Shown here: positions 2,796 to 59,242 of the stretch, piece by piece
How positions within the stretch are numbered: the stretch's first letter is position 1
How the letters are laid out: every line of letters begins with the position of its first letter
NCBI GenBank assembly: GCA_014360065.1
Contig: JACIYF010000002.1
Location: 17,717-81,716, forward strand
Origin: Clostridia bacterium
GTDB taxonomy: Bacteria > Bacillota > DSM-521 > Neomoorellales > JACIYF01
Length of the DNA stretch: 64,000 nt
Reading direction: 5' to 3'
Notes under the pieces: model-generated
Seen by the model: the letters and a program-made list of their open reading frames with translations, nothing else
Told to the model about the DNA's origin: nothing
Database searches by the model: none
Made by a program: the position numbers and the translations under genes

Positions 2796-3430
2796 GGTTT
2801 AACCCCCTTCGCGGTACAAAGCCTCAGCGCAGTAAAGACGTCTCTGGCTATCAAATCCACGTTGAGATCTTCGGGGCAGCACTGCTGTACAGCTGCGCCC
2901 CCAGCAATTACTTTTATTCCCTCAAGACCGACTTTTTGGGCGAAGGGCTTGATTTCCCGTACGGTATGAAATGTAGTGGAAATGAGGGTGGAAACGCCAA
3001 TCCAGCTTGCCTGTTCCTGCTGGGCTACAGTAACGAAGGTCTGGGGCGGTACGTCTGTTCCCAGGTCTATTACCCGAAAGCCTGCTGCGGTAAAGATTAT
3101 TTTTACTATGTTTTTGCCTAAGTCGTGGATATCGCCCTGGATGGTGCCTAAGACTATGGTGTCTTGCAGCACCTGCTTCATATTTAAATGACCGTGAGCT
3201 TGTAAAACGTTCATGACGCTCATTACGGCCCGGCCGGCCAACAAGATTTCCAGCAGGTTAAATTCATCGTTGGTACATTTTATGTCCAGGGAACGCAAGG
3301 CATGGGTCAACCCCAGTTCTATCACAGCCTCTACCGGGAGACCGGCTCGCAACAGTTGGAGAGCGATCTCTGCCGCTTCTGCACTGCGGCCTTCCATAAT
3401 AACTGTAGCCAGTTTGTTAGCATCCACCAT
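2792..3430 (-). CDS. Cobalamin-binding corrinoid protein (B12-binding cap plus Rossmann domain).
   Basis: 212-aa ORF with the DxHxxG motif (GDIHDLGKN) followed by a GxxxSxL-type region (GVSTLISTT). The size is typical of methyltransferase corrinoid proteins. Confidence 0.8.
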   Translation of the reverse strand: MVDANKLATVIMEGRSAEAAEIALQLLRAGLPVEAVIELGLTHALRSLDIKCTNDEFNLLEILLAGRAVMSVMNVLQAHGHLNMKQVLQDTIVLGTIQGDIHDLGKNIVKIIFTAAGFRVIDLGTDVPPQTFVTVAQQEQASWIGVSTLISTTFHTVREIKPFAQKVGLEGIKVIAGGAAVQQCCPEDLNVDLIARDVFTALRLCTAKGVKP

Positions 3431-7071: not shown

Positions 7072-8178
7072 CTAGTCGACTTGGCTCAGCACCTTTTCTA
7101 AAGCGGAAACGAGCTTCCGGTTCTCCTCCGGCTTGCCGATACTGATGCGAAGGAAATTGTCCAGGCCGAAAATGTCGCCGGTGCGGGTAATCACCCCTTC
7201 CTTGAGCAGTGCCTGGAACACCTTCCGGCTATCCCGGCCAACGTTGACGAAAATGAAGTTGGCCTGGGTGGGGAGATAGGCTAAGCCCAGCCGAGCCAAC
7301 TCGCCGTAAAGGTACCGCTTTCCTTGCTGGTTGTTCTCCTGGGTACGCTTAACATGCGCGCCATCGCCAAGGGCGGCACAGGCTGCCTTTTGGGCCAGAC
7401 GGTTGACGTTAAAAGGCTCGCGCACTCGGTGAATCCAGCTTATGACCTCCGGATTGCCCACGCCGTAGCCCACCCGCAACCCGGCCAAGCCATAGACCTT
7501 GGAAAATGTGCGCAGCACAACCAGGTTAGGGTAATTGGGCAGAAGTTCCAGTCCCTGGGGGTAATCAGGATCGTCGGCAAACTCACCATAGGCCTCATCC
7601 AGTATGACCAGCACTTGGGGTGGCACTTGGTCTAAGAATTGGACTAGCTCCCCGCGCTTGACTATGGTCCCGGTGGGATTGTTGGGATTGCAGATGAAAA
7701 TCAGTTTGGTGCCATGGTTAATCCTTTTGGCCATGGCCGGCAGATCAAAACGGAACTCGGCGTCTAGCGGCACCGGAACCACCTTGCCGCCCATGAGCTG
7801 AGCGCAGAAATCGTATTCCGAGAAGCTAGGTTGGCCTACTATCACTTCCTCATCGGGCCGCAAGAAGGCCTCGGCAATGAGCTTGATGATCTCATCGGCG
7901 CCATTGCCCAAGATAAGCGATTCCTCGGTAACTTGCAGGTGCTGGGCCAGCGCCCGACGAAGCTCGAAGCAGGTGCCGTCGGGGTAGAGATTTACGCCCG
8001 CTGCTTCCTCCTGGATGGCCTTTATGGCTAAGGGCGAAGGCCCCAAGGGGTTCTCATTGGAAGCAAGCTTAACTACGTCGCTAAGGCCTAGCTCCCGCTG
8101 TACTTCTTCGATGGGCTTACCCGGGACATATGGTTTGATATCGCGAATCGCTTCCCGAATCAATGCTTCCACTTCCAT
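7072..8178 (-). CDS. hisC: Histidinol-phosphate aminotransferase.
   Basis: Motifs ASNENPLGPSP and FSKVYGLAGLRVGY (PLP lysine). I chose the ATG at 8178, which is preceded by GAGGAGG; the track start at 8202 lies upstream of that RBS. Confidence 0.9.
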   Translation of the reverse strand: MEVEALIREAIRDIKPYVPGKPIEEVQRELGLSDVVKLASNENPLGPSPLAIKAIQEEAAGVNLYPDGTCFELRRALAQHLQVTEESLILGNGADEIIKLIAEAFLRPDEEVIVGQPSFSEYDFCAQLMGGKVVPVPLDAEFRFDLPAMAKRINHGTKLIFICNPNNPTGTIVKRGELVQFLDQVPPQVLVILDEAYGEFADDPDYPQGLELLPNYPNLVVLRTFSKVYGLAGLRVGYGVGNPEVISWIHRVREPFNVNRLAQKAACAALGDGAHVKRTQENNQQGKRYLYGELARLGLAYLPTQANFIFVNVGRDSRKVFQALLKEGVITRTGDIFGLDNFLRISIGKPEENRKLVSALEKVLSQVD

Positions 8179-42490: not shown

Positions 42491-43522
42491 ATGCGAGCCA
42501 GCCGCCGCCAAATCTTAAGTAATAAGTTGTTGCCCTTAGCCTTATCAGCCATAATGGCCGGGGCTTTCTTTGCCAGCCGCCTTTGCCAACTGGCCTGGGC
42601 TCATTCGCCATCCCCTCCGACTGCCCGCACAACTCAGATCGTTACTTGGGGTAGCCTGGGGGGTTGCGATTGCCGAGGACAGATCCTTAAGCCAACTCCT
42701 GAACCCCACCAAAAGGGGTTGGATGTGGAGGAACTGCAGCAACGTTTGCGTGAGCTAGGTTACTATTTCGGACCCATAAACGGCGTTTACGGGCCGGACA
42801 CTTGGAAGGCGGTACGGCAGTTTAAGGCCAACCTGGGTTTGCCTCCGGATGCAGTGGTAGATGAAGCTACCTGGGAAGCCCTAGGGTACGGGATTGAAAT
42901 CCCGATTTCTAAAGATCCCCTCCCGCCTCCTGAAGAGCCAATCGCCATAACCATCGACACCGACCGCAAGCGCCTGATGGTCTACAGCAAGGGCGATCTA
43001 TACTCAGAGTTCCCGGTGGCAGTTGGCAAGCCGGAAACTCCTACCCCTCGAGGAGAATGGAAGATAATATACAAAGGAAGGGACTGGGGCGGGGGCTTCG
43101 GTACCCGGTGGTTAGGGTTAAACGTCCCCTGGGGCATCTATGGCATCCACGGCACTAATAAGCCCTGGTCCATAGGCACGGCAGCCTCCCACGGCTGCAT
43201 TCGCATGTTCAACCATCACGTGGAACAGCTCTGGGAGTGGGTAAAAGTGGGCACACCGGTAACTATCGTTGGCCCACCCGGTTTTCCCGATTACTGGAGC
43301 TTCCGTACCATTGAACCCAAAGCGGTGGGTCCCGATGTGGTGGAAGTACAGAAGCGGCTCCGCCAGGAAGGGCTCTATTGGTCCTGGATTGATGGCTCCT
43401 ACGGGGATGCGACCATACGGGCGGTGAAGTACTTCCAGGCCCTGCAAGGTTTACCCATCACCGGGGTGGTGGATCGCAAGACCTATCAGGCTTTAGGCCT
43501 AAAGATTATCGAGTGGGATTGA
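42491..43522 (+). CDS. L,D-transpeptidase (YkuD) flanked by two peptidoglycan-binding (PG_binding_1) domains.
   Basis: VEELQQRLRELGYYFGPINGVYG..., catalytic SHGCIRM, and a second PGB repeat VVEVQKRLRQEGLYWSWIDGSYG. Confidence 0.85.
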   Translation: MRASRRQILSNKLLPLALSAIMAGAFFASRLCQLAWAHSPSPPTARTTQIVTWGSLGGCDCRGQILKPTPEPHQKGLDVEELQQRLRELGYYFGPINGVYGPDTWKAVRQFKANLGLPPDAVVDEATWEALGYGIEIPISKDPLPPPEEPIAITIDTDRKRLMVYSKGDLYSEFPVAVGKPETPTPRGEWKIIYKGRDWGGGFGTRWLGLNVPWGIYGIHGTNKPWSIGTAASHGCIRMFNHHVEQLWEWVKVGTPVTIVGPPGFPDYWSFRTIEPKAVGPDVVEVQKRLRQEGLYWSWIDGSYGDATIRAVKYFQALQGLPITGVVDRKTYQALGLKIIEWD

Positions 43523-44567
43523 AACTAATTAGCATCCCATGGAGCAACCCGGTATCGCTGACAATCACCTGGCCGACACCTAGGACCAGAAGCACAGCAT
43601 AAAGGATCATGGCTCCGGCCGTAATGATCTCTGCTCGCGGCGGATCAAAGGCTAGGAGCTCTTGCCGCTCGGCCGGGGCAGCCAGGGCCAGCCTCTCCCA
43701 CCACTCTTTGACCGCACTACGCCTCAGGATATGCCCATGCACCTGGCCGGGATCATAGCTCTTAAGTCCAAGGTCCATAGCCCCCAAGGCAGTTATGGTG
43801 CCACCGATCCCGATCACCGGCCGGCTAGCGGGAGCAATGTCACTGGGGGGCAGCCGCATCCCCGTAGCTACCAAGCCATCTTCCAGCAAGGCCTGGGCCT
43901 CGGCCAGGGTGGTAGCGACTCGGGTGCACCGCACCGACCCCAAAGGGAAACTTAGAGCCTGAAGCTCCGGCCCGCCGCCAGGCTTGCTAGCAGTAATTTC
44001 GGTGCTGCCCCCACCGATATCTATAACCACGGGCGGCAAGGTCAAAGCGGCTTCGTCCCACCCTGCCTGCGCCCACGTTCTTCGCATCCGCTCTTCTGCC
44101 AATACCAAGGAAGCGCCCCGGTACCCCAGCTCACCTTCCCGAGCACCATCGATGATTTCGACCGCAAAACCGGTTTCTTTAGCAATGGTCACCAGAACTT
44201 CTTCCCGATTGGCAGCTTCCCGCAGGGCACTGGTCCCCACCGCCCAAACCCCAGCCGGCCGGTAGCTAGCCACTATCTCTTGGTATTCCTTGAGAGCAGC
44301 AACTGTCCTTTCCAGGGCAGCCAGAGAAATAAAGCTAGGGCCGAGCCCGGCCCGGAAGCCGGGCTCGGCCCTAGCCACTTGCCTTTCTCCCAAACGGGTG
44401 GTGCGGATCTCAGCCCGCAAGCGCCGGATCTGCCAATTGGCACAGCTTCCCTGGTTAAGCCCGGGGCCGGCACTCCCGCGCTGCCTCGGCAACCGCTCCA
44501 CCTCGGCTATCAGCAATCTTACCGTGTTGCTACCCACGTCGATGGCCGCCAAGGTCTGTCCGCCCAT
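43506..44567 (-). CDS. Ppx/GppA family phosphatase.
   Basis: AAIDVGSNTVRLLIAEV...VIDIGGGSTEI motifs. Confidence 0.8.
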   Translation of the reverse strand: MGGQTLAAIDVGSNTVRLLIAEVERLPRQRGSAGPGLNQGSCANWQIRRLRAEIRTTRLGERQVARAEPGFRAGLGPSFISLAALERTVAALKEYQEIVASYRPAGVWAVGTSALREAANREEVLVTIAKETGFAVEIIDGAREGELGYRGASLVLAEERMRRTWAQAGWDEAALTLPPVVIDIGGGSTEITASKPGGGPELQALSFPLGSVRCTRVATTLAEAQALLEDGLVATGMRLPPSDIAPASRPVIGIGGTITALGAMDLGLKSYDPGQVHGHILRRSAVKEWWERLALAAPAERQELLAFDPPRAEIITAGAMILYAVLLVLGVGQVIVSDTGLLHGMLISFNPTR

Positions 44568-44608: not shown

Positions 44609-45028
44609 CTAGCCATGAATCAGCTTGGGCAGGCAGCGGGCGCAAGCCCACCTCTCCCGGCCGCGAAAGCGGACGGGGAAGAGGTAAACTATGCTGTCGT
44701 TGGCCTGGCAGAATAGGCAACGGGCCTCCTCGCCGCCGCCCCAGCTCTGGGCCTGGACTGGGGATGGCGCTGGCGCCGCCCAGGCTAGCCCTGCCGGCTC
44801 GGCCTTGGCAGCCTTGGGATCAAAAGGCGGAGCTTCCCGCTCCTCCAGGCTTAAGGCGCCGGTAGGGCAAACGCTCAAGCAAACGCCGCCGCCATCACAG
44901 ATCTCCTCTCGGAGCACCTTGGCCTTGCCGTTTACCAGGGTTATAGCTCCTTCCACGCAAGGGCTAATGCATTGGCCGCAACCGTTGCATAGCTCTTCGT
45001 CGATCTTGACGATAGTGCGCTTCACCAT
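44609..45028 (-). CDS. 2x[4Fe-4S] ferredoxin-domain protein with a C-terminal CxxC...CxxC tail.
   Basis: [11 protein letters not shown] and [12 protein letters not shown], with C-terminal CLFCQ...CARC. ATG at 45028 after GGAGGTG. Confidence 0.7.
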
Positions 45029-45119
45029 GGTTCCCACCTCCAGGAACCATTATACCCCGGTTTTGGCCCCTGATCGGTGAGCTGCATCACACTACCGCCT
45101 TGGCTCCCGAGGCCGCCGC

Positions 45120-46001
45120 TCATCCTGCTAGCAATCCATGCCGCACCAGGGTGGGAATGGGGCTCACCAGGTGCTTTTTCAGCCAGCTCCGGGCCGGCTC
45201 CATGCCCATGGCCAAGCCCACCAGCTCAGTAAAATACACCACCGGCAGCCCAAAGTCCTGCCCGGAAGCCCTGGCGATCTGCGGTTGCCTGAGTTCCAAG
45301 TTGGGCTGGCACAATGGGCAAGCCGACACTATCAATTCTGCGCCCTCAGTTTTGGCTTCACTCAAGATATGGCCCCCAAGCCGATAGGTAACCTCGGGGG
45401 CAGTAATGCTATAGGACGCCCCGCAGCAATCGGTCTTGGCTCCCCAAGGGGCTACTTCCGCTCCCAAGACTTCCAGCAAGCGATCTAAGCTGCTAGGATT
45501 GGTGGGGTGATCGAATTGAGCTACTTTCTCCGGACGGGTCAGCAGGCACCCGTAGTAGGGAACCACCCGTAAGCCGTTTAGCGGCCGCTTAATCTGGTTG
45601 GCCAAAGCATCCAGGCCCACTTGGTTCACTAATAGGTCCAGCGAGCTCCGAACTTGCACCCGGTTGTTAAAGGTCTGCCCGATTACTTCCTCGATCTGGC
45701 GCACCCCTTCTTGGTCCTCAGCGTAGATTTTGGCTGCCCGCAGGTGGCTAAAACAAGCCGCGCAGGGCGTCATCACCTGCTCCAGCCCAGCCTTTTCCGC
45801 CAGGACCAAGTTTCTGGCGCTGAGGCAAGCGCTGAGGAGGGCGCTTTCCGCATAGGCAGGGGTTGAACCGCAGCAGTTCCACTTAGGTATTTCCACCAAG
45901 TCTACCCCCAGGGACGCAAATACCGCCCGGGTGGAGGCATCGTAGCTTCGAGCCATGCCATGGGCCGAACAACCAGGATAATAGCCAACTCGGATAGTCA
46001 T
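45120..46001 (-). CDS. hdrB2: HdrB-like subunit (two CCG domains), second copy.
   Basis: MTIRVGYYPGCS...WNCCGSTPAY...CPLCQ. The ATG at 46001 overlaps the upstream stop (ATGA). Confidence 0.75.
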   Translation of the reverse strand: MTIRVGYYPGCSAHGMARSYDASTRAVFASLGVDLVEIPKWNCCGSTPAYAESALLSACLSARNLVLAEKAGLEQVMTPCAACFSHLRAAKIYAEDQEGVRQIEEVIGQTFNNRVQVRSSLDLLVNQVGLDALANQIKRPLNGLRVVPYYGCLLTRPEKVAQFDHPTNPSSLDRLLEVLGAEVAPWGAKTDCCGASYSITAPEVTYRLGGHILSEAKTEGAELIVSACPLCQPNLELRQPQIARASGQDFGLPVVYFTELVGLAMGMEPARSWLKKHLVSPIPTLVRHGLLAG

Positions 46002-46615
46002 GACGCTTTTTCCACCTGCCTTACCCTCATTAAGATTCGCCTGAGCTCCTCCCCTTCCGCCGACGTCTGCCGCCGGATGCCGGGCAAGCCTAGGCTGCCA
46101 GCGGCTCGCCACATATCACCGATCCGCACCATCCCCCGCTGAAACAACTTGATCCCCAGGGGCAAATCCTGAAATGGCTTCCCGCTTTTCAAGTCATATT
46201 CCAACATTAGCCCTATTTCCTCCACCCGGCCAGTGGCCATCATGTTCTCCAGGAAGAGACGGTTAAAGCGAACAACACTGGCGTCTGGAGCCCCATAACC
46301 CTCATGCCGAGCCATTTCCCGCAAGGTTTCATTGACCCGGTACATGGCAAACCCCGAAGGGCAGTTGGCCTCACAGGTAGCACAGCCCAGGCATAAATAG
46401 ATGGCCCGACTGGCAAACAGCTTTTCCTTTTGCCCATCCACAATCATTTGCACGATCTGGTTGGGAGGGTAATCCATAATTGATCCCAACGGGCAGCCGC
46501 CCGAGCACTTGCCGCACTGGTAGCACTCGTATACCTTTTGGCCACTCCTCCTCTCCACTTCATTAAGGAACCAAGTCCCTTCTTGGTCCTGCTTGACCGA
46601 TATTCGCACAGGCAC
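45998..46615 (-). CDS. hdrC2: HdrC-like 2x[4Fe-4S] subunit, second copy.
   Basis: CYQCGKCSGGCP and CLGCATCEANCP. GTG start after AAGGAGG. Confidence 0.7.
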   Translation of the reverse strand: MPVRISVKQDQEGTWFLNEVERRSGQKVYECYQCGKCSGGCPLGSIMDYPPNQIVQMIVDGQKEKLFASRAIYLCLGCATCEANCPSGFAMYRVNETLREMARHEGYGAPDASVVRFNRLFLENMMATGRVEEIGLMLEYDLKSGKPFQDLPLGIKLFQRGMVRIGDMWRAAGSLGLPGIRRQTSAEGEELRRILMRVRQVEKAS

Positions 46616-46651
46616 CCGACCTCCTTTGCCGAATCTTTGCGGCAGTTTGGA

Positions 46652-47095
46652 CTAACCGCTTGCTCCCGCTAGCCCCGGGCGCGACCCCTCCACTGCGGCT
46701 TGGCGAGCCTTCTGGGCCCGAGCCTTAGGGCAATCAAACTCTCGCCTAAACTCCCGGTCTATGGGGCGATAATCAGGCTCAATGCCCTGCTTCAAGGCTA
46801 GCTGGCGCAATACTGCCATTAGGCGCGCAACATTGATGCCGGCTGGACAATTGATGCTGCATTCATGGCATTTCTCGCAATACCAAATGGCGCGGCAGTT
46901 CAAGACGCGACCTTCAAATCCATCCAGTATGCTCTCCACCAATTGCCGGGGAGTAAGATCAAACTCGGCTCCTTTTGCGCATGAACCGCCACATTTAGAG
47001 CATTGTAAGCAAGATCGCAGGTTAATGTGAGCTTCCCGCTCCACTTCCTGTCGGAAGCTCTCCTCAGGGCCAAATGGGTCCAACAACAGGCGCAT
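46652..47095 (-). CDS. Small HdrC-like di-cluster protein, in the 'hyp' position of sHdr-type clusters.
   Basis: 147-aa ORF with CLQCSKCGGSC and CEKCHECSINCP. Confidence 0.6.
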   Translation of the reverse strand: MRLLLDPFGPEESFRQEVEREAHINLRSCLQCSKCGGSCAKGAEFDLTPRQLVESILDGFEGRVLNCRAIWYCEKCHECSINCPAGINVARLMAVLRQLALKQGIEPDYRPIDREFRREFDCPKARAQKARQAAVEGSRPGLAGASG

Positions 47096-47139
47096 GTTTT
47101 CTCCCTACTCTCTTCCTAAGAACTAGCTACTCCCGGCCC

Positions 47140-47152
47140 GCCCAGCACTCCA
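47140..47152. repeat. Single copy of the repeat core (GCCCAGCACTCCA), between hdrA and the 147-aa gene.
   Basis: One mismatch to the core. It lies in a 78-nt intra-cluster gap. Confidence 0.6.
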
Positions 47153-47173
47153 CCCTTGACGCAGGGACATTGC

Positions 47174-48211
47174 TCACTTTTGGCCGGCCAAGTAGCCCAG
47201 CACTTCTGCCGCCGCGCTCCCGGCTTGGGCAACCGCCTGGCTGATTTCCATAGGTGCCAGGCAGGAGCCAGCTAGATAGATCCCTGGCCGAGAAGAGCGA
47301 ACTGGTTGGGTGTTGTAGTCGGCCTCTTGGAAGAACCCGTACTCATCGCAGGCTAAGTCCAGCATCTCCGCCAGCTGGCGGGAGTCGGAGCCTGGCTCCA
47401 TGGCCGAAGCCAAGACTACCAAGTCGGCTTCCAGTTCCACTGGATTGCCAATAAGGGAATCCTCGGCCCGAACCGTCAGTTTACCGCGGTTGGGAACAAC
47501 CTTAGCCACCCGGCCCCGGATGTAGCGAACGCCATATTCTTCGATGGCGGAGCGCACCAGCTCCTCATAGCCTTTACCTAAAGCCCGGATATCGATGTAG
47601 AACACAAAGACTTGCGCTTCGGGAATCTGCTGCTTGATGAGGATAGCCTCCTTGGCACAGTAGGAGCAGCAGATCTTGGAACAATAGCGATAGCCCTTGG
47701 CCCGGTCGCGAGAACCGACACAATGGACCAAGGCCACCACCGGCCTCGAGCCGGCGCCGAGGTATTGGGGCAGCTGCCTCGTTTGCAGAAGCCTTTCCAG
47801 CTCCAAGCTGGTGATAACTGATTTTAGCCGGCCGTAGCCATACTCGGTGTAAGCGGTGGGCTCAAAGTATTTAAACCCGGTGGCCACCACCACTGCACCC
47901 ACCGTTTCTTTGCGGGTGCCGTCTGGACCTTCAAGCACCGCCTCGAAGTTACCAGCCTGGCCGCTAAGCTGTTTGAGCTTAAACCCGGTCAGGATGGCAA
48001 CCTGAGGGTCGGCTTGCACGGATTCAAGTTCTTGCTTCAGCATAGCCTGGGCATCCTGGAGCCGCGGGAAAGTCATGGATATATCCCGCATATGCCCGCC
48101 CAGCTGGGACTCCTTCTCCACCAAGACCACCGGAACCCCACCAGCAGCAATTTTCTGAGCCGCTTTGATGCCGGCGATGCCTCCCCCGATAACTAGAGCC
48201 TTCCTCTCCAT
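47174..48211 (-). CDS. hdrA: Short HdrA-like FAD flavoprotein with one [4Fe-4S] motif.
   Basis: MERKALVIGGGIAGIKAA...LVEKESQLGGHM; HCVGSRD...YCSKICCSYC. About 345 aa from the ATG at 48211 (RBS GGAGGAGG). Confidence 0.75.
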   Translation of the reverse strand: MERKALVIGGGIAGIKAAQKIAAGGVPVVLVEKESQLGGHMRDISMTFPRLQDAQAMLKQELESVQADPQVAILTGFKLKQLSGQAGNFEAVLEGPDGTRKETVGAVVVATGFKYFEPTAYTEYGYGRLKSVITSLELERLLQTRQLPQYLGAGSRPVVALVHCVGSRDRAKGYRYCSKICCSYCAKEAILIKQQIPEAQVFVFYIDIRALGKGYEELVRSAIEEYGVRYIRGRVAKVVPNRGKLTVRAEDSLIGNPVELEADLVVLASAMEPGSDSRQLAEMLDLACDEYGFFQEADYNTQPVRSSRPGIYLAGSCLAPMEISQAVAQAGSAAAEVLGYLAGQK

Positions 48212-48247
48212 GTTCTGTCCTCCTCCAAAAAACATTTACTTCCAGCC

Positions 48248-48260
48248 ACCCAGCACTTAA
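48248..48260. repeat. Single copy of the repeat core (ACCCAGCACTTAA), between hdrB1 and hdrA.
   Basis: Two mismatches to the core. In mRNA sense it is followed by CTGGAAGTAAATGTTTTTTGGAGGAGG. Confidence 0.6.
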
Positions 48261-48304
48261 CGCAGAGCAACTCCACTCTCGCAAGCCGCCTATTGCCTAA
48301 CTCC

Positions 48305-49273
48305 TCACGCTACTCCTGGCCTGCCCACGGGATGAGCTGCCCGCTGGTTGAGCCGCTCAAAAATGGCTTTGAGCCGCTCGGGACCGCTAATGTGAGCTTT
48401 GAAGGCCAGGCGGTTTTCCGGGACGCCCAAGGCCAAACCCACCAGCTGGGCTAAGTGCACCACCGGCAGGTGGAAGTCGGTCCCTTCCCGGTAGTTCAAC
48501 TGCTGCTGCATCCGATCCAATTGGCTGTGGCAATAAGGGCAAATCACCACCACCATGTCCGCGCCTGAATCCTTGAGGCTGTTCAATTTACTCCGGCTGT
48601 GGTTCAGAGAATACTCCTTGAAATTGATGACCTGGGTAAAGCCAGTGCCACAGCATTCCCGGTTGGCGGGGTAGGAGGCCACTTCCCCACCCATAATTTC
48701 AATTAATTCCTCCAAAAAAGTAGGGTAATTAGCATCATCGATGGCTACGTACTTGCCGCCGCTAAGGTAATGGCAGCCGTAGTGGGTAGCGATCCTAAAG
48801 CCCGTAAGCGGGCGACGAACTTTTTCGGCAATCCGGTCCTTTAAGCGGTAAGCCATTTCCGCAAAATGAAATACCTTGCTAGTGCCCTTATACTCGTGCC
48901 CCATCATGTGCAGCATCATGTTGACGCTGGCCCGCGGTTCCGGATTGTGGTTGAGGAAATGACCAAACTCAGTGAGGAAAGTCCAACAACCATTGCAGAC
49001 CGCCACTATATCTAGCCCTTGCTCTTCCGCCAAGGCAATGTTTCTGGCCACCGCCGGCATGGAAGCGGTAGGCGGGGCCACATTGGCAAAGGTAACGAAA
49101 CCGCCGCAACAGGTCTGGTCATCGGTTTCGTAAGTATCCACGCCCAACTGGTGCAGCACATCCACAGCGCTAGCCTCAATTCCCGGATACTTATTGCTGG
49201 CCACGCAGCTACGGAAAAAGAATATTTTCTCAGGGATGGGGATGGCGGCAATCTTATCAGATCTTACGGGCAA
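48305..49273 (-). CDS. hdrB1: HdrB-like subunit (two CCG domains), first copy.
   Basis: FFFRSCVASNKYPG...DDQTCCGGF...ECCGTGF...CPYCH. TTG start overlapping the hdrC1 stop by 17 nt. Confidence 0.75.
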   Translation of the reverse strand: MPVRSDKIAAIPIPEKIFFFRSCVASNKYPGIEASAVDVLHQLGVDTYETDDQTCCGGFVTFANVAPPTASMPAVARNIALAEEQGLDIVAVCNGCWTFLTEFGHFLNHNPEPRASVNMMLHMMGHEYKGTSKVFHFAEMAYRLKDRIAEKVRRPLTGFRIATHYGCHYLSGGKYVAIDDANYPTFLEELIEIMGGEVASYPANRECCGTGFTQVINFKEYSLNHSRSKLNSLKDSGADMVVVICPYCHSQLDRMQQQLNYREGTDFHLPVVHLAQLVGLALGVPENRLAFKAHISGPERLKAIFERLNQRAAHPVGRPGVA

Positions 49274-49970
49274 CTACTTCACCCCCCGGAACTCCATAGT
49301 TGAAGAAGCGGTTCTTGGTAGCCACTTTTCCGACCTTCCTGGGCACCACTTTCTCCCGGCACTTCCTCTCCACCTCAGGAGTACAAACAGCGCACTCCTG
49401 CTTTTCTACCCCACCTATGGACTTGATGAAAGCAGTCATGCCGGATAGATCAGAAATCAAATTGATCTCGGCCAAGGCCCGCTCGGATACCCGCCGTTGC
49501 CTCGGCAGGCCCGCTTCCTCACGAATGCTAGCGATATCCCCACGGTGTTCCTGGATATAGGGGTTGCGCTCATGAGTGTTGACAGTAATACCGTTTACTA
49601 GGTAATCCTTTTCCGCGTAAGCTTCCAGCCGCTTTACGTCCTCCCAGCCATAGCCCTCGCTCATGGCCGCCAGCCGGAGCATAAACACGAAAAAGGGGAA
49701 ATTGATGTCCATGGGACAAGCCGCGTAGCAACCGCTGCAGAAAAAGCATTGCCATAGCTCAACGCTGGAAAGCAAGCGCTTGATGTTACCAAAAACTAGA
49801 TCGCGGATGAGCTTTCTGGGGTTGTAGCTGGGGGTGACTGCTGCCGCTGGGCATTGGCCGGTGCATTTGCCGCATTGGATACACTTTTCCGCCTCGTTTA
49901 CAAAACCCATGGCAATAGGCTTCCAGCGCTCGTAGAATTCAGGATCCCAATCCTTTACTTCCTCTAACAA
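49257..49970 (-). CDS. hdrC1: HdrC-like 2x[4Fe-4S] subunit, first copy.
   Basis: CIQCGKCTGQCP and CFFCSGCYAACP. TTG start after AAGGAGG. Confidence 0.7.
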   Translation of the reverse strand: MLEEVKDWDPEFYERWKPIAMGFVNEAEKCIQCGKCTGQCPAAAVTPSYNPRKLIRDLVFGNIKRLLSSVELWQCFFCSGCYAACPMDINFPFFVFMLRLAAMSEGYGWEDVKRLEAYAEKDYLVNGITVNTHERNPYIQEHRGDIASIREEAGLPRQRRVSERALAEINLISDLSGMTAFIKSIGGVEKQECAVCTPEVERKCREKVVPRKVGKVATKNRFFNYGVPGGEVVARKI

Positions 49971-50019
49971 TGGCAGTACCTCCTTTGGGGCTAACCGGAG
50001 CTGACTTCACGCAAACCGG

Positions 50020-50265
50020 TTAGCTAGCCTTCTTCTCTCCCAAGCCCAAAGCCTTCTTGATCATCGGGGTCATCTCGGGCGCAAAGCGCACCAGGTCGCG
50101 GCGGCAATCTGAGCCCTTGAGCGCAAATTTCACCATACCCGGCATCATCTTCACCATCCGGCCCAGGGGCATCTCCAAGCTGAAGAGCTGGGTGAAGAAA
50201 CCTAGCACCTGCTCCCCCACCTGTTTGCCCGACCGCGATCCATAGCTCTTTAGGTAATCGCTCAT
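50020..50265 (-). CDS. Small hypothetical protein (81 aa), first gene of the hdr-like cluster.
   Basis: ATG at 50265 preceded by GAGGAGGTGAGGAGA. The product looks helical with no recognisable motif (no TusA CPxP, no lipoyl-Lys motif). Confidence 0.45.
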   Translation of the reverse strand: MSDYLKSYGSRSGKQVGEQVLGFFTQLFSLEMPLGRMVKMMPGMVKFALKGSDCRRDLVRFAPEMTPMIKKALGLGEKKAS

Positions 50266-50374
50266 TCTCCTCACCTCCTCGAAACAAACCTTTTACTTCC
50301 ACCACCAGCCCTGGCCCCTACCCTTGCGAACCTCGGTAGGGTTAGGTGGACAGGGACCGGCTTCCGCAAATTGT

Positions 50375-50403
50375 CTTATACTGTTATGAATATATGCTCA
50401 CAA
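50375..50403 (-). promoter_or_regulatory. Putative sigma-A promoter of the hdr-like cluster.
   Basis: Minus strand reads TTGTGA-17 nt-TATAAG in the AT-rich gap. The -35 overlaps one of two direct repeats GCTCACAA(A)TTG (50396-50406 and 50422-50433). Confidence 0.35.
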
Positions 50404-50432
50404 TTGTATTAGCGAAACAAGGCTCACAAATT

Positions 50433-50466
50433 GAGGCCAGGAGAAAAGGATTGGGCTCCTGGCCTC
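50433..50466 (-). terminator. Hairpin downstream of terC (possible terminator, weak U-tract).
   Basis: GAGGCCAGGAG-N12-CTCCTGGCCTC is a perfect 11-bp stem. The minus strand follows it with AATTTGTG. Confidence 0.4.
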
Positions 50467-50599
50467 ATGAAACCTCTGTGAAAAATGGAACGTTGTCTTT
50501 CCTACTTAACTTCGAATTCTTTTTGCTGATATTGTATATCGCATAAAAGCCAACTGCAACCCTTTTAGCAAAATTTTTTGGTTTCTCGGCGATGGTTCA

Positions 50600-51675: not shown

Positions 51676-52182
51676 ATGGCGCCGGAACCATCTTTAGATA
51701 AGAATAGAGGAAATAAAGACAGAGACTTAAGTCGGGACGAAATAGAAATCGTCATTAATGGCGTGACTATGCGGGTGCGCCGCCAAACCAGCTTACCCTG
51801 GCCTCACGAAGTCACGGCAGTCATCCCCCGGGCGGAGCTGCGCCAGCGTCGCTATCAAGATGGCCAGCTGGTTTCGGAAGATGAACTCATCCTTAATAGC
51901 ATCACCATCGTCCATGCCCCCAGGCACCCATTGGCCGGAGAGAAGCCGCCCGCACCCGCGCTGCCTGGCTCTCCAGGCGGATCTTTGCCCAGCCCCGGGC
52001 CTGGGCCTGGCTCGGGACCTGGACCTGGGCCCAGGACTAAGCCTGGACCTGGTCCTGGTCCGGGGCCTAAGCCGGCATCGGCAGCCCCAGTTGAACCCAG
52101 GCCTACACCAGCTCCTCGGTACCGGATCACTCTCCCTTGCCCCAGCCATCCCCGCCAGCGGCCGAAAGCCCCTGACACCTAA
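51676..52182 (+). CDS. Hypothetical soluble protein with a Pro/Gly-repeat C-terminal half.
   Basis: 168-aa ORF with an AGGAG RBS and an intrinsic terminator downstream. The tail contains PGPGPGSGPGPGPRTKPGPGPGPGPKP. No family recognised. Confidence 0.5.
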   Translation: MAPEPSLDKNRGNKDRDLSRDEIEIVINGVTMRVRRQTSLPWPHEVTAVIPRAELRQRRYQDGQLVSEDELILNSITIVHAPRHPLAGEKPPAPALPGSPGGSLPSPGPGPGSGPGPGPRTKPGPGPGPGPKPASAAPVEPRPTPAPRYRITLPCPSHPRQRPKAPDT

Positions 52183-52348: not shown

Positions 52349-53070
52349 ATGTGCGGAATTGCTGGCTGGGTGGACTGGGAAATCAACCTCAGTAAGGAGA
52401 CAAGAATCCTTGAGGCTATGAGTAAAGCCTTGGCCTGCCGGGGGCCCGACGCCTCCGGGATCTGGTTGTCACCCCATGCTGGCTTGGCCCATCGCCGTCT
52501 AACGGTAATCGATCCAGAAGGGGGAAGCCAGCCCATGATTGGCCAGCAAGGTGACCATGCCTTGGTCATTGTCTACAACGGAGAGCTCTATAATACCGAG
52601 GAATTGCGCCAGGAATTGCGGCTTAAGGGCCACCGCTTCTTCGGCTACAGCGACACCGAGGTGTTGCTCAAAGCCTATATGCAATGGGGAGCGGAGTGCC
52701 TGGAGCGCTTAAATGGAATCTTTGCTTTCGCAATCTGGGGTGAAAAGGATCAGACTAGGGAATTTTGCGGCAGGCGCTTAAAGGGGTACTGCCGCCGCAG
52801 GTTTTGGCCCGCCCCAAAAGCCCTTACCCCAAAACCCACCACCCTGAGTATCTCGAGGCAGTCCGAAACTGGTTACTTCACATTCTAAGTGACCCAACCT
52901 CCCCTTTGCAGGGGCTGGTAGATGGGCCGACTGTGCGCAGGTTGGCCTTATCCGGAGCCGATCAAATCAATCTGCCCTGGTACGGTCAACTCATGACTGG
53001 TCCACAACTGTTAGCCTATCTGATCCAAATCGACATTTGGTTGAGGGAATACCGGGTCAGCATCGGCTAA
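52349..53070 (+). pseudogene. asnB: Asparagine synthetase (glutamine-hydrolysing) remnant. The N-terminal GATase part is joined out of frame to the C-terminal roughly 100 aa; the synthetase core is deleted.
   Basis: ORF 52349..52888 starts MCGIAGWVDW...GIFAFAIWGEKDQT, then becomes nonsense. ORF 52765..53070 (another frame) is an AsnB C-terminus (LKGVLPPQVLARPKSPYP...). The junction is near 52750-52765. Confidence 0.75.
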
Positions 53071-53291
53071 ACTCCTAACCATCCCCGTGGGCCAAAAGAA
53101 GGGGGCGGAGCCAGCGACGGAACTAGCTGGGTAAAGAAAGCCAGGGAGTCCCCCGTGCCGCTCACAAGTAGCATCACCAAGGAAGAAAATAGCCCAGGTA
53201 ATAATGGGGGCTGGCATGGAGTGCTAGTTGGCTCCGCCGAGGATATGGAGCAAGGGGCCAGCACCGCAGGTGGCATGCGATAGCAACCGGT

Positions 53292-53320
53292 TTGTCAGCA
53301 ACCCAAGAATGTGCTAAAAT
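53292..53320 (+). promoter_or_regulatory. Sigma-A promoter of tRNA-Sec.
   Basis: TTGTCA-17 nt-TAAAAT with a TGC extended -10. The -10 ends 24 nt before the tRNA 5' end. Confidence 0.6.
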
Positions 53321-53344
53321 GGGCTCGCTGTTGGAGGAACTTGC

Positions 53345-53443
53345 GGGGGTGGATGGGTCCTGGTGGGTTCCCTGGACTTCAAATCCAGTGGCGCTCAGGC
53401 CACTCCTGGGCGCGGTGGGTTCGATTCCCACACACTCCCGCCA
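53345..53443 (+). tRNA. selC: tRNA-Sec (selenocysteine, anticodon UCA), 99 nt with encoded CCA.
   Basis: Hand fold: acceptor GGGGGTG(G)/(A)CACTCCC; 6-bp D-stem with a 4-nt loop (GGGTCC-TGGT-GGGTTC); anticodon arm CTGGA-CTTCAAA-TCCAG; 9-bp variable arm GCGCTCAGG-CCACT-CCTGGGCGC; T arm GTGGG-TTCGATT-CCCAC; G73-CCA. Confidence 0.8.
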
Positions 53444-53488: not shown

Positions 53489-54694
53489 CTAGGCTTCTAG
53501 GAAGCGTTTGATTATGGGGGTAACTTTATTGGCTTCCAAAAGGAACGCGTCATGCCCGTATAATGAAGCCAGATTAAAGTAAATTACCGATTTGCCAGCT
53601 TTCTTTATAGCCCTGGCCAGTTGCTTAGTCTGAGCTGGCGGGTACAGCCAATCGGAAGAAAAGGACAGCAAAAGGAATTGGCTTTTTGCTCGGATGCACG
53701 CCCTTACCAGATCCCCTTCGCCCCAACTGGCGGCATCATAGTAGTCCATAGCTTTGGTTATGTAAAGGTAACTATTGGCATCAAAGCGCTCTACAAAGGA
53801 ACGCCCTTGGTGCTCTAAGTATCGCTCCACCTCAAAGTCAAGGTTAAAACCAAAGCTAGGCCCGCCTTTGTGGCAGTATCGCCGTCCAAATTTCCAGCCC
53901 ATGGATGTTTCCGAGAGATAAGTTATGTGTCCCAACATGCGGGCAATGGCCAGCCCCCTCTCAGGACCGCGCTCCCCGTAGTAGTCGCCTCCTCGAAAAC
54001 CGGGGTCATTGATTATGGCCTGCCGGGCCACCTGGTTAAAGGCGATGCCTTGGTCGCTAAGCCGAGCTGAGGAGGCGAGGATTATGACTTTTTGCACCCG
54101 CTCCGGGTACGCCAACGCCCACTCTAAGGCCTGTTGCCCTCCCAGCGAACCCCCCGCCACCGCCCACAGCCTTTCGATCCCCAGGTGGGAGACGAGCCGT
54201 TCCTGGAGGCGCACCCAGTCGCCCACTGTAACCACGGGAAAGCGCAGCCCATACGGCCTGCCGGTAGCTGGGTCGACTGATCCCGGCCCGGTAGTCCCGT
54301 AGCAGCCGCCCAAAACATTGGAGCAAATGACAAAGTATTTCCTGGTGTCAAAAGCCTTCCCCGGCCCCACCATGGAGTCCCACCAGCCCGGCCGGTCCAA
54401 CCGCCAAGGCCGGCCATATTCTCGAGCACTGGCATCCCAGCCAGCGACATGGGCGTCTCCCGACAGGGCATGGAGAATAAGAATGGCATTGCTAGCATCT
54501 TGGTTTAGCTGGCCGTAGGTCTCGTATTCAACTTCCACCGGAGCAAGGCTCCCTCCACCCTCCAGCGGCAAGGGGTTAGTAGCATCGGCCAACTGCACCC
54601 TCTGGGGAAAAGTCCACCCTACCGAGCCAGGTGAATCCGGAACCTCAAATCTCGATGACTTTTTAGCCGGAAGCAAGTTCAAAGGGTCGCTCAT
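53489..54694 (-). CDS. metX: Homoserine O-acetyltransferase.
   Basis: 401-aa alpha/beta hydrolase ([13 protein letters not shown] nucleophile elbow). It overlaps the metY stop by 4 nt. Confidence 0.9.
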
Positions 54695-56010
54695 CGGGTT
54701 CCCTCCTGTTGGCTAGCCGCAATCGCTTGGTCCAGGTCAGCGATGATGTCCTCAACTTCTTCTAGGCCAACCGACAACCTGATATAATCGTCAGTTACTC
54801 CGGCTGATAACCGTTCCTCCTGACTCAACTGCTGGTGGGTAGTGGAAGCCGGGTGGATGATCAGGCTCTTGGCGTCGCCAATATTGGCCAGATGTGAAAT
54901 TAGCTTAACCGATCGGATCAGCTTCACCGCCGCCTGGTACCCGCCCCGGATCCCAAAGCCAATGATGGCCCCTTGACCCCGAGGCAAGTAGCGCTTGGCT
55001 CGCCCGTAGTCGGGATGATTGGGTAAGCCAGGGTAGTTGACCCAGGACACCTCCGGGTGCCCCGCCAACCACTCTGCCACCGCTTGGGCATTCTGACAAT
55101 GGCGCTGCATCCTCAGGGGAAGGGTTTCTATCCCCTGCAGGAAAAGAAAGGCATTGAAGGGTGAAAGGGCAGGGCCCAGATCCCGAAGCAGCTGGACTCT
55201 GGCCTTGACAATATAGGCAGTACTTAGCTTTGCATCGGCGGCCTTGGCCCCAAACAGCTCCCAGTAACAAAGGTTGTGGTAGGATGGGTCGGGCTCGGAT
55301 AGCTCCGGGAACTTGCCGTTATCCCAGTTAAAGCGTCCTGACTCCACTATGGCCCCGCCAATGGAAGTGCCGTGACCATTTATAAACTTGGTTAGCGAGT
55401 GGACGACAACATCGGCACCGTGCTCAAAGGGCCGCAATAAGTAAGGTGTAGTGACGGTGTTGTCCACGATCAAGGGAATCCCGTGCCGGTGGGCAACGGC
55501 AGCAATTGCCTCAAAGTCATCCACGTTATTCTTGGGGTTGCCAATGGACTCCAAGTAAACCAGCCGGGTCCGGCCGTCGATGGCAGCTTCGATATGGCCG
55601 GGGTCAGAGGAGTCCACAAAGCGAACCTCAATACCTAGACGAGCTAGGGTATAGTGAAAAAGATTATAGGTCCCCCCATAGAGGCAGCTGCTGCTGACGA
55701 TGTTTTGGCCCGCTCGAGTTATGTTTAGGACCGCCAAGGTTATGGCCGCCTGCCCCGAGGCTACCGCCAAAGCCGCGCTTCCCCCTTCCAGGGCAGCCAA
55801 TCGCTTTTCCAAGACTTCGGTGGTGGGATTGGCGATGCGGGCATAGACGTAGCCCGGCTGCTCGAGGGCAAATTGGGCTGCTGCTTCCTCAGCGGTATCA
55901 AAGACATAGGAGCTGGTTTGGTAGATGGGCACCGAGCGAGCTTTGGTCAAAGGATCCGGCACCTGCCCGGCATGGATGGATAAGGTTGAAAAGCGTTGGG
56001 CATTAGTCAT
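54691..56010 (-). CDS. metY: O-acetylhomoserine sulfhydrylase (PLP-dependent).
   Basis: 439-aa ORF with a Cys/Met-metabolism PLP fold ([10 protein letters not shown] with the PLP Lys). Confidence 0.9.
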
Positions 56011-56077: not shown

Positions 56078-56205
56078 GCCCCTTCTTATCTTTCCGGCCG
56101 TTGTTATCCAACGCCGGCAGGAGTTGGCACCTTTCAGGCGCTAGCCGCCTGGAGGTTGCCGAGGTTCATCGGGCCTTTCCCTCCCCTACTCTGGATAAGA
56201 AGTGA
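56078..56205 (-). promoter_or_regulatory. SAM-I (S-box) riboswitch controlling metY-metX.
   Basis: Minus strand reads TTCTTATCCAGAGTAGGGGAGGGAAAGGCCCGATGAACCTCGGCAACC...GGTGCCAACTCCTGCCGG...GGAAAGATAAGAAGG. This matches the S-box consensus blocks (CTTATC.AGAG.GG.GGAGGGA..GGCCC.ATGAA.CC.GCAACC / GGTGC.AA.TCC / AGATAAG). Confidence 0.9.
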
Positions 56206-58007: not shown

Positions 58008-59242
58008 CTAGCTCTTTTGGGCCGCCCGTTCCTTTTCCCGCTGCTGCAGTTCCCGCCAGAGGATCTTGCCGGCCCCGCTCTTCGGCAGAGCCTCCACCAA
58101 CTCCACCATCCGGGGGTACTTATAGGCGGCCATCTGCTGTTTGGACCAGTCGATGATCCCCTGGGCAGTCACCTTATCCTTAAACTCAGGCCGGGGAACT
58201 ATAAACGCCTTGACGTTTTCAATGCGCTCAGGGTCAGGTACACCCACCACGCAGGCTTCGGCCACGGCCGGATGCCGGTAGAGAATGGCTTCCACTTCCG
58301 CCGGCCAAACCTTGAACCCGGCGGCATTGATCATCCGCTTGGAACGGTCGATTACGTAAAAATAGCCATCCTCATCCATGCGGCAGATGTCTCCAGTGCG
58401 GAAAAAGCTTTTGCCATCGAGTTCGATGAAGGCTTCCTTGGTCTCCTCCGGCTTATTCCAGTAGCCCTTGAATACCTCGGGGCCATTTACTACCAGCTCC
58501 CCTTCTTCCCCTACTTCCAGCTCCTTAAGAGTTTCCACATCGACAATGCGGGCATCCACCCCAAAATCGGGAATGCCTATGCACTGGAGCTTGGCTCGAT
58601 CGGGGGGGTTGAAGTGAGTCTGAGAGATGGTCTCGGTAAGGCCGTAGCCCTCAATGTAATTAAGCCCGGTTACCTGGTTCAGCCTTTCGGCTACTGCCGC
58701 CGGCATAGGTGCCCCGCCCCCGCCCACCGCCACCAGCGAGCTCAGGTCACGGCTGCCAATGGTGGGAGAAGCCAAGAGGTCGATTACCATGGTGGTAATG
58801 TTGACCCAATGGCTGCAGCGGTAGTTTTCGATGGCCGCCAAGGCCGCTTCCCGATCCCAGCGAGTTAGAAGTACTATGGTTCCGCCGGCAATGATGGGAG
58901 CGTTTAGGCTATGAACCATTCCAGTTACATGAAAAAGCGGCAGGGAAGCCAAGTTCACGCTGGAGGAGGTAGCCGCGAGCCAATGATACGAACTTAAGGA
59001 ATTGGAAATGACCGTGGCTGGCAACTCTCCCATAGCTCTGCATAGGTGATGGTTTTACCATAGTAAATCACCGCCGCATGAGCCGGAAAGCGCCGGGCCG
59101 ACGCCTCCAAGAAATCAAAAAGCGGCACCTGGGGGTAAACCAAGGTCTTGGGTAAGCGGGCCGGCCAGTAAGGAAAATGGCGCTGGTTCATAAGATACTG
59201 GTTCCTCCTTTCCGGGTAACCCGGTTGGTCTTGGCCAACCAA
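58008..59242 (-). pseudogene. Long-chain acyl-CoA synthetase (AMP-binding family) remnant with an internal deletion plus a frameshift.
   Basis: The N-terminal ORF (58994..59242) ends at ...KTITYAELWES. The second ORF (58008..59033, another frame) resumes at ...LPLFHVTGMV through to the C-terminus (GDICRMDEDGYFYVIDRSKRMI, GKILWREL). The segment that should carry the YTSGTTGxPKG P-loop is missing. Confidence 0.75.

Follow-up and report, generated by a model that had tools for sequence, protein, structure and literature searches.

A minus-strand, heterodisulfide reductase (Hdr)-like cluster of eight genes lies at positions 44,609 to 50,265 of a 64,000-nucleotide stretch of DNA from a Clostridia bacterium (assembly GCA_014360065.1, contig JACIYF010000002.1), the whole of which we call the window. 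In the direction of transcription the genes encode a small Met/Pro-rich protein (orf81), an HdrC-like protein (C1), an HdrB-like protein (B1), a minimal HdrA, a third HdrC-like protein (HdrC'), a second HdrC- and HdrB-like pair (C2 and B2) and a ferredoxin with a cysteine-containing tail (Table 1). A first-pass annotation made from the sequence alone had listed the same eight open reading frames (ORFs) and described them as tightly packed. All were recovered, and the packing is indeed close: C1 and B1 overlap by 17 nucleotides (nt), C2 and B2 by 4 nt, and the remaining gaps measure 36-93 nt. Pfam and NCBIfam models concur with the motif-based calls, assigning two CCG domains each to B1 and B2 and a Fer4 di-cluster to C1, C2 and the 147-amino-acid (aa) HdrC'. 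Independent gene calls on metagenome contigs 99% identical to the window yield the same products, which PGAP labels only as "CoB--CoM heterodisulfide reductase subunit family protein" or "hypothetical". Upstream of orf81, the leader contains a candidate sigma-70-like promoter, TTGCAG-17-TATACAAT, and a hairpin (CCCTACC...GGTAGGG), both read by eye; the promoter site was not among the matches of a consensus scan, and the leader matched no Rfam family and contained no Rex operator.

Gene order and subunit homology

The order C1-B1-A-x-C2-B2, combined with an HdrA of about 345 aa, mimics type I of the sHdr system of sulfur oxidizers; the first-pass annotation had recognized it as the order of sHdr genes. 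Type I is defined by the syntenic core shdrC1-B1-A-H-C2-B2 (PMC11094781). On this basis the cluster might specify a sulfur-oxidizing complex of the sHdr type in which another carrier, perhaps orf81 or the tailed ferredoxin, takes the place of lipoylated LbpA. Apart from the identical layout (PMC11094781), such a reading can draw on the position of B2, in a fully supported clade that also holds sHdrB2, and on a rhodanese gene nearby in two relatives. The subunit sequences tell a different story, and we consider an sHdr function hardly probable, since it is largely refuted on homology.

The sHdrA of Hyphomicrobium denitrificans (6TJR) is the one sHdr component with a solved structure. As a reference, its residues 96-337 were rebuilt from the phmmer alignment, which led to an identical protein and to its locus, L085. 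This locus encodes DsrE3C, sHdrC1 (247 aa), sHdrB1 (466 aa, with no more than a faint CCG signal), sHdrA (349 aa), sHdrH (282 aa, no Pfam match), sHdrC2 and sHdrB2, followed by a hypothetical gene, LbpA (GCV_H), and then TusA and SoxT. A second, more distant locus, L094, has TusA, two DsrE, sHdrC1, sHdrB1 (454 aa), sHdrA, sHdrH (245 aa), sHdrC2 and sHdrB2, then LbpA, Trx, DsrE, another LbpA and a radical-SAM gene. A tblastn search of plasmids for an annotated sHdr cluster returned only unrelated HdrA-like genes. Set against the type I core, the window cluster matches in the order of gene types, but of the six positions those of B1 and H hold non-orthologous proteins.

HdrA comprises a flavin adenine dinucleotide (FAD)-binding thioredoxin-reductase core (GGGIAG) and one [4Fe-4S] site (CVGSRD...CSKICC). 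In an alignment with the 643-aa HdrA 8rvv_A, its residues 9-103 correspond to 139-233 and its residues 111-344 to 317-556; residues 1-138, 234-316 and 557-643 of 8rvv_A are left unmatched, so that the window protein is devoid of the N-terminal, the inserted ferredoxin and the C-terminal ferredoxin domains. Over the core it shares 38-41% identity with methanogen HdrA and keeps the four cluster cysteines. In phmmer it scores 207-246 bits with methanogen HdrA (246 with the solved HdrA) versus 197 with sHdrA 6TJR, which ranks only sixth among the PDB matches; identity with the sHdrA of the reference loci is 31-33%, with 201 bits for the match at 33%. A neighbour-joining tree of 341 columns, with limited sampling and two loci as sHdr references, contains a split with 98% bootstrap support that places the window clade on one side together with methanogen, Syntrophomonadaceae short and Anaerolineae long HdrA, and every sHdrA-side representative on the other. 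The window clade itself has 100% support, and its sister is the Syntrophomonadaceae-type HdrA (85% bootstrap, 44-46% identity). Among the matches listed, the closest HdrA homologues share 55-63% identity, all are 336-346 aa long, and they come from a Thermincolia metagenome-assembled genome (MAG), Desulfosporosinus, Desulfitobacterium, Paradesulfitobacterium, Ca. Frackibacter and Selenihalanaerobacter.

According to a published proposal, bifurcating and non-bifurcating HdrA can be told apart by residues K409 and E356 (PMC12054007). Equivalents of both are kept in the window HdrA and in all six aligned members of its clade, while the K409 position is N or L in two context-verified sHdrA. Both the position outside the sHdrA side of the 98% split and the retained K409 thus argue against an sHdr complex.

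The same is true of B1. It aligns over its full length with methanogen HdrB (36-39% identity, 187-220 bits in phmmer) and shows 21-23% identity and 67 bits with the sHdrB1 of 454-466 aa. All ten CCG cysteines are present, the same ligands as in methanogen HdrB, whereas the sHdrB1 of L085 and L094 keep seven of ten, with S, S and D at the other three positions. With 22% identity, 322 aa as against 454-466 aa and ten cysteines as against seven, B1 is not of the sHdrB1 kind; by homology it is a canonical HdrB with the predicted ligand set for two noncubane [4Fe-4S] clusters. The gene between HdrA and C2 is not sHdrH either. HdrC' matches TIGR03290 (60 bits) and qmoC (50 bits), in both cases through its N-terminal ferredoxin-like domain, and nine cysteines are invariant in the alignment of relatives; blastp found no match between HdrC' and sHdrH, and hhalign gave a probability of 0.3%. 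Judged on these alignments, HdrC' is an HdrC paralogue and not related to sHdrH.

Among the other HdrC-like subunits, C1 matches NCBIfam hdrC_Methbact over model positions 28-190 of 192 (78.8 bits, under the cut-off) and is 72-78% identical in relatives. In the window (49257-49400) and in homologues it ends in an extension, DCxxC-x7/8-C ... RF(F/Y)NYG, with three invariant cysteines that may form an extra metal site; Syntrophomonas-type C1 has no such extension. In C2, eight cysteines are invariant across relatives.

The partners of sHdr are also missing. The first-pass annotation had seen no LbpA, DsrE, TusA or lipoate ligase in the 64 kb, and this holds: tblastn with proteins from genuine sHdr loci found nothing at E<0.1, Pfam models run on essentially all window ORFs of at least 90 aa (shorter ones being screened by tblastn only) matched housekeeping genes only, and the sole BPL_LplA_LipB match in the window is BirA. 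Homologues of LbpA (GCV_H-like), DsrE, TusA and sHdrH were likewise not found by tblastn in 17 related loci, whereas LbpA, DsrE and TusA are adjacent in both reference sHdr loci. Furthermore, orf81 has no conserved cysteine for sulfur carriage, and the hosts are strict anaerobes, among them reducers of sulfate, metals and selenate. In a GTDB-wide survey with hidden Markov models, Bacillota carry type II sHdr only, with type I additionally in Sulfobacillales (PMC11094781); the failure of the sHdr assignment on homology fits this survey, which, judged indirectly, would not have counted such clusters as sHdr. The label "sHdr-type" given by the first-pass annotation therefore could not be upheld. 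As far as the sequences tell, the sHdr-like order is a likeness of layout and not membership, since HdrA groups away from sHdrA, and B1 and the middle gene are not orthologous to sHdrB1 and sHdrH. The subunits do not fall inside any well-characterized non-sHdr family either: they are nearest to canonical HdrABC but stay under every curated NCBIfam equivalog cut-off (HdrB, 250.6 bits for B1 on TIGR03288 versus 345; HdrA, 287 versus 1100; HdrC, 79 versus 270).

B2 has all ten CCG cysteines in the HdrB pattern, and its clade (100% support) includes Anaerolineae HdrB (48% identity), Syntrophomonas B2 (43%) and sHdrB2 (31-35%). Its scores with the SdhE membrane-anchor model NF042965 (159 bits, cut-off 500) and with the HdrB model TIGR03288 (158 bits) are about equal. 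This would suit a scheme in which the CCG subunits do not act on thiols and one arm, most likely C2B2, works with menaquinone or an organic acid, as in SdhE, LutA, GlcF or GlpC, within a soluble or membrane-associated dehydrogenase. The predicted helical, Met-rich and possibly amphipathic nature of orf81 would be compatible with such a scheme, and CoA-transferase-like genes come after the related clusters of Syntrophomonadaceae type (in L005 and L012 two ORFs of ~327-329 and 263-264 aa, so classified by eye). On the other hand, none of the loci has a linked membrane subunit or a linked flavoprotein dehydrogenase of the GlcD, LutB or SdhA type. B1 is clearly HdrB-like, and both HdrB proteins keep ten cysteines in the HdrB pattern. 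Except for B2 on SdhE, models of the LutA, GlcF, GlpC and TfrB kind score 25-76 bits, far under the 158-250 bits on HdrB models. We regard a non-thiol role as distinctly unlikely.

Small companions and gene neighbourhood

The order orf81-C1-B1-A-HdrC'-C2-B2 is invariant in the 17 related loci wherever the contig allows. This seven-gene module occurs in Desulfitobacteriaceae, a Thermincolia MAG and Halanaerobiales, its hosts being Desulfitobacterium, Paradesulfitobacterium, Desulfosporosinus, Acididesulfobacillus, the Thermincolia MAG, Selenihalanaerobacter and Ca. Frackibacter; a scan of genome contigs found at least two loci of the window clade among the 600 candidates listed. The literature searched holds no description of this Firmicute cluster, though earlier mention in reviews is possible. 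On the homology found here, the cluster represents a small, undescribed lineage in a few anaerobic Firmicutes.

The suggestion that orf81 is a specific partner of the cluster gained support, since the gene stands immediately upstream of C1 in 17 of 17 related loci. The protein has 21-23 invariant positions (FSxEMPLxRMMKMMPGMxK...FxPxMxPMxK), none of them a Cys or His, and neither a Pfam or NCBIfam match nor a signal peptide. Of 5.8 billion clusters only 63 belong to its family, and each of these is labelled "hypothetical". An AlphaFold2 model has three helices, with a mean pLDDT of 70 and a pTM of 0.40 (moderate confidence). The role of a thiol or sulfur carrier was rejected, as its single Cys is not conserved.

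The tailed ferredoxin had been put forward as a partner in the same way, but it is confined to the window species and one congener (L096) and is absent after B2 from the other 16 loci. It combines an N-terminal 2x[4Fe-4S] domain (Pfam Fer4) with an Ala/Pro-rich linker and a CxxC-x24-CxxC tail. In the congener it is 73% identical, with both domains conserved and the linker variable. In 15 of the 17 related loci, orf81 is instead directly preceded by a gene for a protein of 81-92 aa with eight invariant cysteines (CxxC...CxxC...CxxC...CxxxC), which belongs to an unannotated family and is missing in the window and in L096; in the Thermincolia MAG a 64-aa ferredoxin gene directly precedes this 8-Cys gene. 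It is conceivable that the tailed ferredoxin and the 8-Cys protein are functionally equivalent. A homologous relation, with the tail as a fused version of the 8-Cys protein, was unsupported (hhalign probability 0.07%). The analysis flags two tiny unannotated families, the Met-rich orf81 and the 8-Cys protein, as obligate Hdr companions.

A repressor of the CsoR/RcnR family is encoded near the cluster in nine loci, in Selenihalanaerobacter with one on the opposite side. These proteins carry a C...Y...C fingerprint in which Tyr replaces the Cu(I)-ligand His, and none of the NCBIfam equivalogs CstR, CsoR, FrmR and RcnR fits them. From this fingerprint, read against CsoR and CstR sequences, they may be persulfide (CstR-like) sensors. 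The repressors also bear on a further explanation, a metal or metalloid stress module (Cu, Se or Te) in which the CsoR-family repressor would sense a metal, orf81 and the 8-Cys protein would be its binding proteins, and its reduction or repair would fall to the Hdr-like complex. The MxxM/MxM-rich motifs of orf81, the 8-Cys protein preceding it in most loci and the adjacent TerC in the window would suit such a module, and many of the hosts respire metals or selenate or tolerate metals (D. metallireducens, P. ferrireducens, S. shriftii). However, the Tyr in place of His and the lack of a match to any curated metal-sensor equivalog speak against metal sensing, orf81 has no signal peptide and cytoplasmic Met-only Cu sites are unusual. 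The TerC adjacency is confined to the window lineage, and no metal transporter is consistently linked. A metal stress module is in our view very unlikely.

Other neighbours in the relatives include a Trx-TrxR fusion that passes TIGR01292 (six loci), Rex (three loci, all Halanaerobiales), a single-domain rhodanese (two loci) and a PhsA-like molybdoenzyme with a YeeE-like protein (two loci). Taken together they hint, and no more than hint, at a redox-regulated chemistry of thiols, disulfides or sulfane sulfur that runs reductively. Input modules of the MvhADG, FdhAB, F420-binding or FlxABCD kind were found neither in the window nor in the annotated related loci.

In the window, the cluster is flanked by TerC and Ppx, which are uninformative, and elsewhere the 64 kb carries housekeeping genes: SpoIIE, TilS, FtsH, folate and pantothenate genes, BirA, SpoVR, PrkA, MetXY, tRNA-Sec and FTHFS. 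A spore-forming anaerobe as host, as had been proposed, is borne out by SpoIIE, SpoVR, GerM, FTHFS and tRNA-Sec. A URO-D/MtaA-like methyltransferase next to a protein with a B12-binding domain, beside a GAF histidine kinase, may represent a corrinoid methyltransferase system, which would be consistent with an acetogen-like or methylotrophic anaerobe. The metXY genes, with a SAM riboswitch (82.9 bits) upstream, form an ordinary S-box-regulated methionine operon ~3 kb from the cluster. Remnants of a broken asparagine synthase, with a GATase ORF and the Asn_synthase C-terminus in another frame, are directly followed by tRNA-Sec. Within the Ppx/GppA ORF, in the N-terminal part ahead of the Pfam match, lies a terminator-like perfect palindrome with a 20-bp stem and a following T-run; its half-site recurs at two places, once with one mismatch. 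A 168-aa Pro/Gly-rich ORF with PGPGPG runs and no Pfam match has a counterpart called as a 172-173-aa gene at the same position on L089-L092 and L096. In one ORF for an AMP-binding enzyme, probably truncated or frameshifted, the matches are limited to AMP-binding_C and the C-terminal half of PF00501.

Table 1. Features of the Hdr-like cluster, of related loci (L numbers) and of the remaining window
Feature	Position	Strand	Description
orf81	50020..50265	-	81 aa, Met/Pro-rich; ATG start with GGAGG ribosome-binding site
HdrC1-like (C1)	49257..49970	-	237 aa; 2x CxxCxxCxxxC and C-terminal extension with 3 invariant Cys
HdrB1-like (B1)	48305..49273	-	322 aa; two CCG domains, 10 Cys
Minimal HdrA-like	47174..48211	-	345 aa from ATG at 48211 (353 aa from first ATG)
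HdrC'	46652..47095	-	147 aa; third HdrC-like di-cluster protein ("hyp" of the first-pass annotation), 9 invariant Cys
HdrC2-like (C2)	45998..46615	-	205 aa; 2x CxxCxxCxxxC
HdrB2-like (B2)	45120..46001	-	293 aa from MTIRV; two CCG motifs, 10 Cys
Tailed ferredoxin	44609..45037	-	142 aa; 2x[4Fe-4S] domain and CxxC...CxxC tail
Operon leader/promoter region	50266..50599	-	Read from sequence
8-Cys protein genes	L083:7646-7897; L086:7798-8043; L087:1690-1950; L088:3643-3903; L001:7659-7937
CsoR/RcnR-family repressors	L081:2883-3167; L086:788-1066 and 7322-7603; L087:6967-7239; L001:7069-7359; L093:7990-8268
Sister C1-B1-A-C2-B2 clusters	L005:8414-14485; L012:2969-8466; L010; L017
URO-D/MtaA-like methyltransferase region	1803-3430	-
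Palindrome half-site copies	29958; 33249		One mismatch at 33249
Ppx/GppA ORF	43506-44567
Palindrome with T-run	44333-44376	-	Inside Ppx/GppA ORF
Pro/Gly-rich ORF	51676-52182	+	168 aa
Asparagine synthase remnants	52349-53443	+	GATase ORF 52349-52888; Asn_synthase C-terminus 52765-53070
tRNA-Sec	53345-53443	+
metX	53489-54694
metY	54691-56010
SAM riboswitch	56083-56201	-	Upstream of metY and metX
AMP-binding enzyme ORF	58008-59033	-

Proposed complex and function

We lean towards the view that the operon encodes a cytoplasmic Hdr-like Fe-S flavoprotein complex that belongs to the canonical HdrABC stock, and not to sHdr, and acts as a reductive thiol, disulfide or persulfide oxidoreductase. Its make-up is modelled on the motifs, the solved (HdrABC)2 architecture and the asymmetric AA'C1B1C2B2 arrangement predicted for sHdr. 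A homodimer of the minimal HdrA, with FAD, one [4Fe-4S] cluster and the retained Lys and Glu that in bifurcating HdrA contact flavin N5, would bear one C1B1 arm, near methanogen HdrBC, and one C2B2 arm of bacterial type. Each HdrB would use its ten cysteines to hold two noncubane [4Fe-4S] clusters, which would provide two competent disulfide-type active sites. HdrC' and the tailed ferredoxin, or the 8-Cys protein, could form an Fe-S wire that replaces the lost HdrA ferredoxin domains and links the flavin to a low-potential carrier, while orf81 might be a further subunit or an assembly factor. Electrons could come from ferredoxin and/or NAD(P)H-linked partners, and disulfide, persulfide or polysulfide-type substrates would be reduced at B1 and B2. 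Since K409 and E356 are retained, the FAD of HdrA may be a site of flavin-based bifurcation or confurcation. The gene neighbours in relatives suggest that the complex might serve thiol-disulfide or sulfane-sulfur homeostasis, or the reduction of sulfur compounds.

Several points weigh against this interpretation of the operon. Every subunit scores under the curated Hdr equivalog cut-offs, and the trees are neighbour-joining trees with limited sampling. The K409/E356 criterion is a proposal only, and most HdrA carry both residues. The inserted ferredoxin domain is absent from HdrA, which makes the low-potential branch hypothetical. Moreover, the window itself offers no suggestive neighbours, and within Desulfitobacteriaceae some of the neighbour associations may be a matter of inherited synteny and not of function.

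A more far-reaching proposal, which we hold to be doubtful, is that a minimal bifurcating or confurcating HdrA sits between two different, competent HdrBC sites and a separate ferredoxin-like branch (HdrC' with the tailed ferredoxin or the 8-Cys protein), with the Met-rich orf81 as a dedicated subunit. Such an enzyme would link two redox couples of the thiol/disulfide or persulfide kind to ferredoxin in anaerobic Firmicutes, and its C1B1-A-C2B2 architecture would be the ancestral one from which the sHdr of sulfur oxidizers specialized. If the complex is active, its HdrA would be the smallest known with bifurcation-linked residues, serving two different noncubane-cluster sites, and a simple system in which to ask which HdrA domains bifurcation needs and how sHdr evolved. 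The cluster also suggests a possible anaerobic route for dealing with disulfide or sulfane-sulfur stress. Its interest lies in the misleading sHdr-like layout, the minimal HdrA with bifurcation-type residues, the double arms and the two unannotated small partners.

Relation to known Hdr systems

In the methanogen HdrABC complexes (PDB 5ODC, 8RVU, 7BKB and 9SFI; bifurcating H2/formate:CoB-CoM heterodisulfide, ferredoxin reductases), HdrB resembles B1 over its full length with identical Cys ligands, HdrC is matched by C1 over nearly its whole length, and the HdrA core has E356, K409 and the four cluster cysteines. The window cluster likewise shows the canonical HdrABC pattern, in which two CCG motifs (10 Cys) are found in HdrB and two [4Fe-4S] motifs in HdrC. 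In contrast to the five-domain methanogen HdrA of ~650 aa, the window HdrA is a core only, without the Cys197 region. The cluster adds a divergent second HdrBC pair and a third HdrC-like protein, and it has no linked module of the Mvh, Fdh or F420 kind. Bacteria of this group would not be expected to contain coenzymes M and B (CoM and CoB).

With type I sHdr the cluster shares the order C1-B1-A-(one gene)-C2-B2, an HdrA of ~345-350 aa with FAD and one [4Fe-4S] site and without ferredoxin domains, a B2 in the same broad HdrB2-type clade and, predicted by analogy, an asymmetric A2(C1B1)(C2B2) complex. It differs in its middle gene, which in the window clade encodes an HdrC-like di-cluster protein of 127-165 aa, whereas sHdrH has 245-282 aa and no cofactor motif. 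LbpA, DsrE, TusA and lipoate-maturation genes are not linked in the window clade, while LbpA is adjacent in L085 and L094; instead the clade adds orf81 and, in most loci, the 8-Cys protein, and its hosts are strict anaerobes. sHdr cannot be called from gene order alone: strict anaerobes, too, have C1B1-A-x-C2B2 and a minimal HdrA, in a version with canonical-type subunits and no lipoate proteins. Type II sHdr (shdrC1B1AHB3-etfAB-emo; Bacillota, Actinobacteriota and Chloroflexota) is alike in its occurrence in Firmicutes and its short HdrA, but the window and related loci are without fused HdrB3, EtfAB, EMO and LbpA.

Close parallels are also the C1-B1-A-C2-B2 clusters of Syntrophomonadaceae, Syntrophales and some Desulfosporosinus (L005, L010, L012 and L017). 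These are without the third HdrC-like gene, orf81, the 8-Cys protein and the C1 extension, and they have other neighbours (CoA-transferase-like genes). Uncharacterized Hdr-like clusters are common in anaerobes, and the window cluster is therefore not a new kind. Like it, the clusters of these four loci combine a short HdrA that has both K409 and E356 with two complete HdrBC pairs in the same order.

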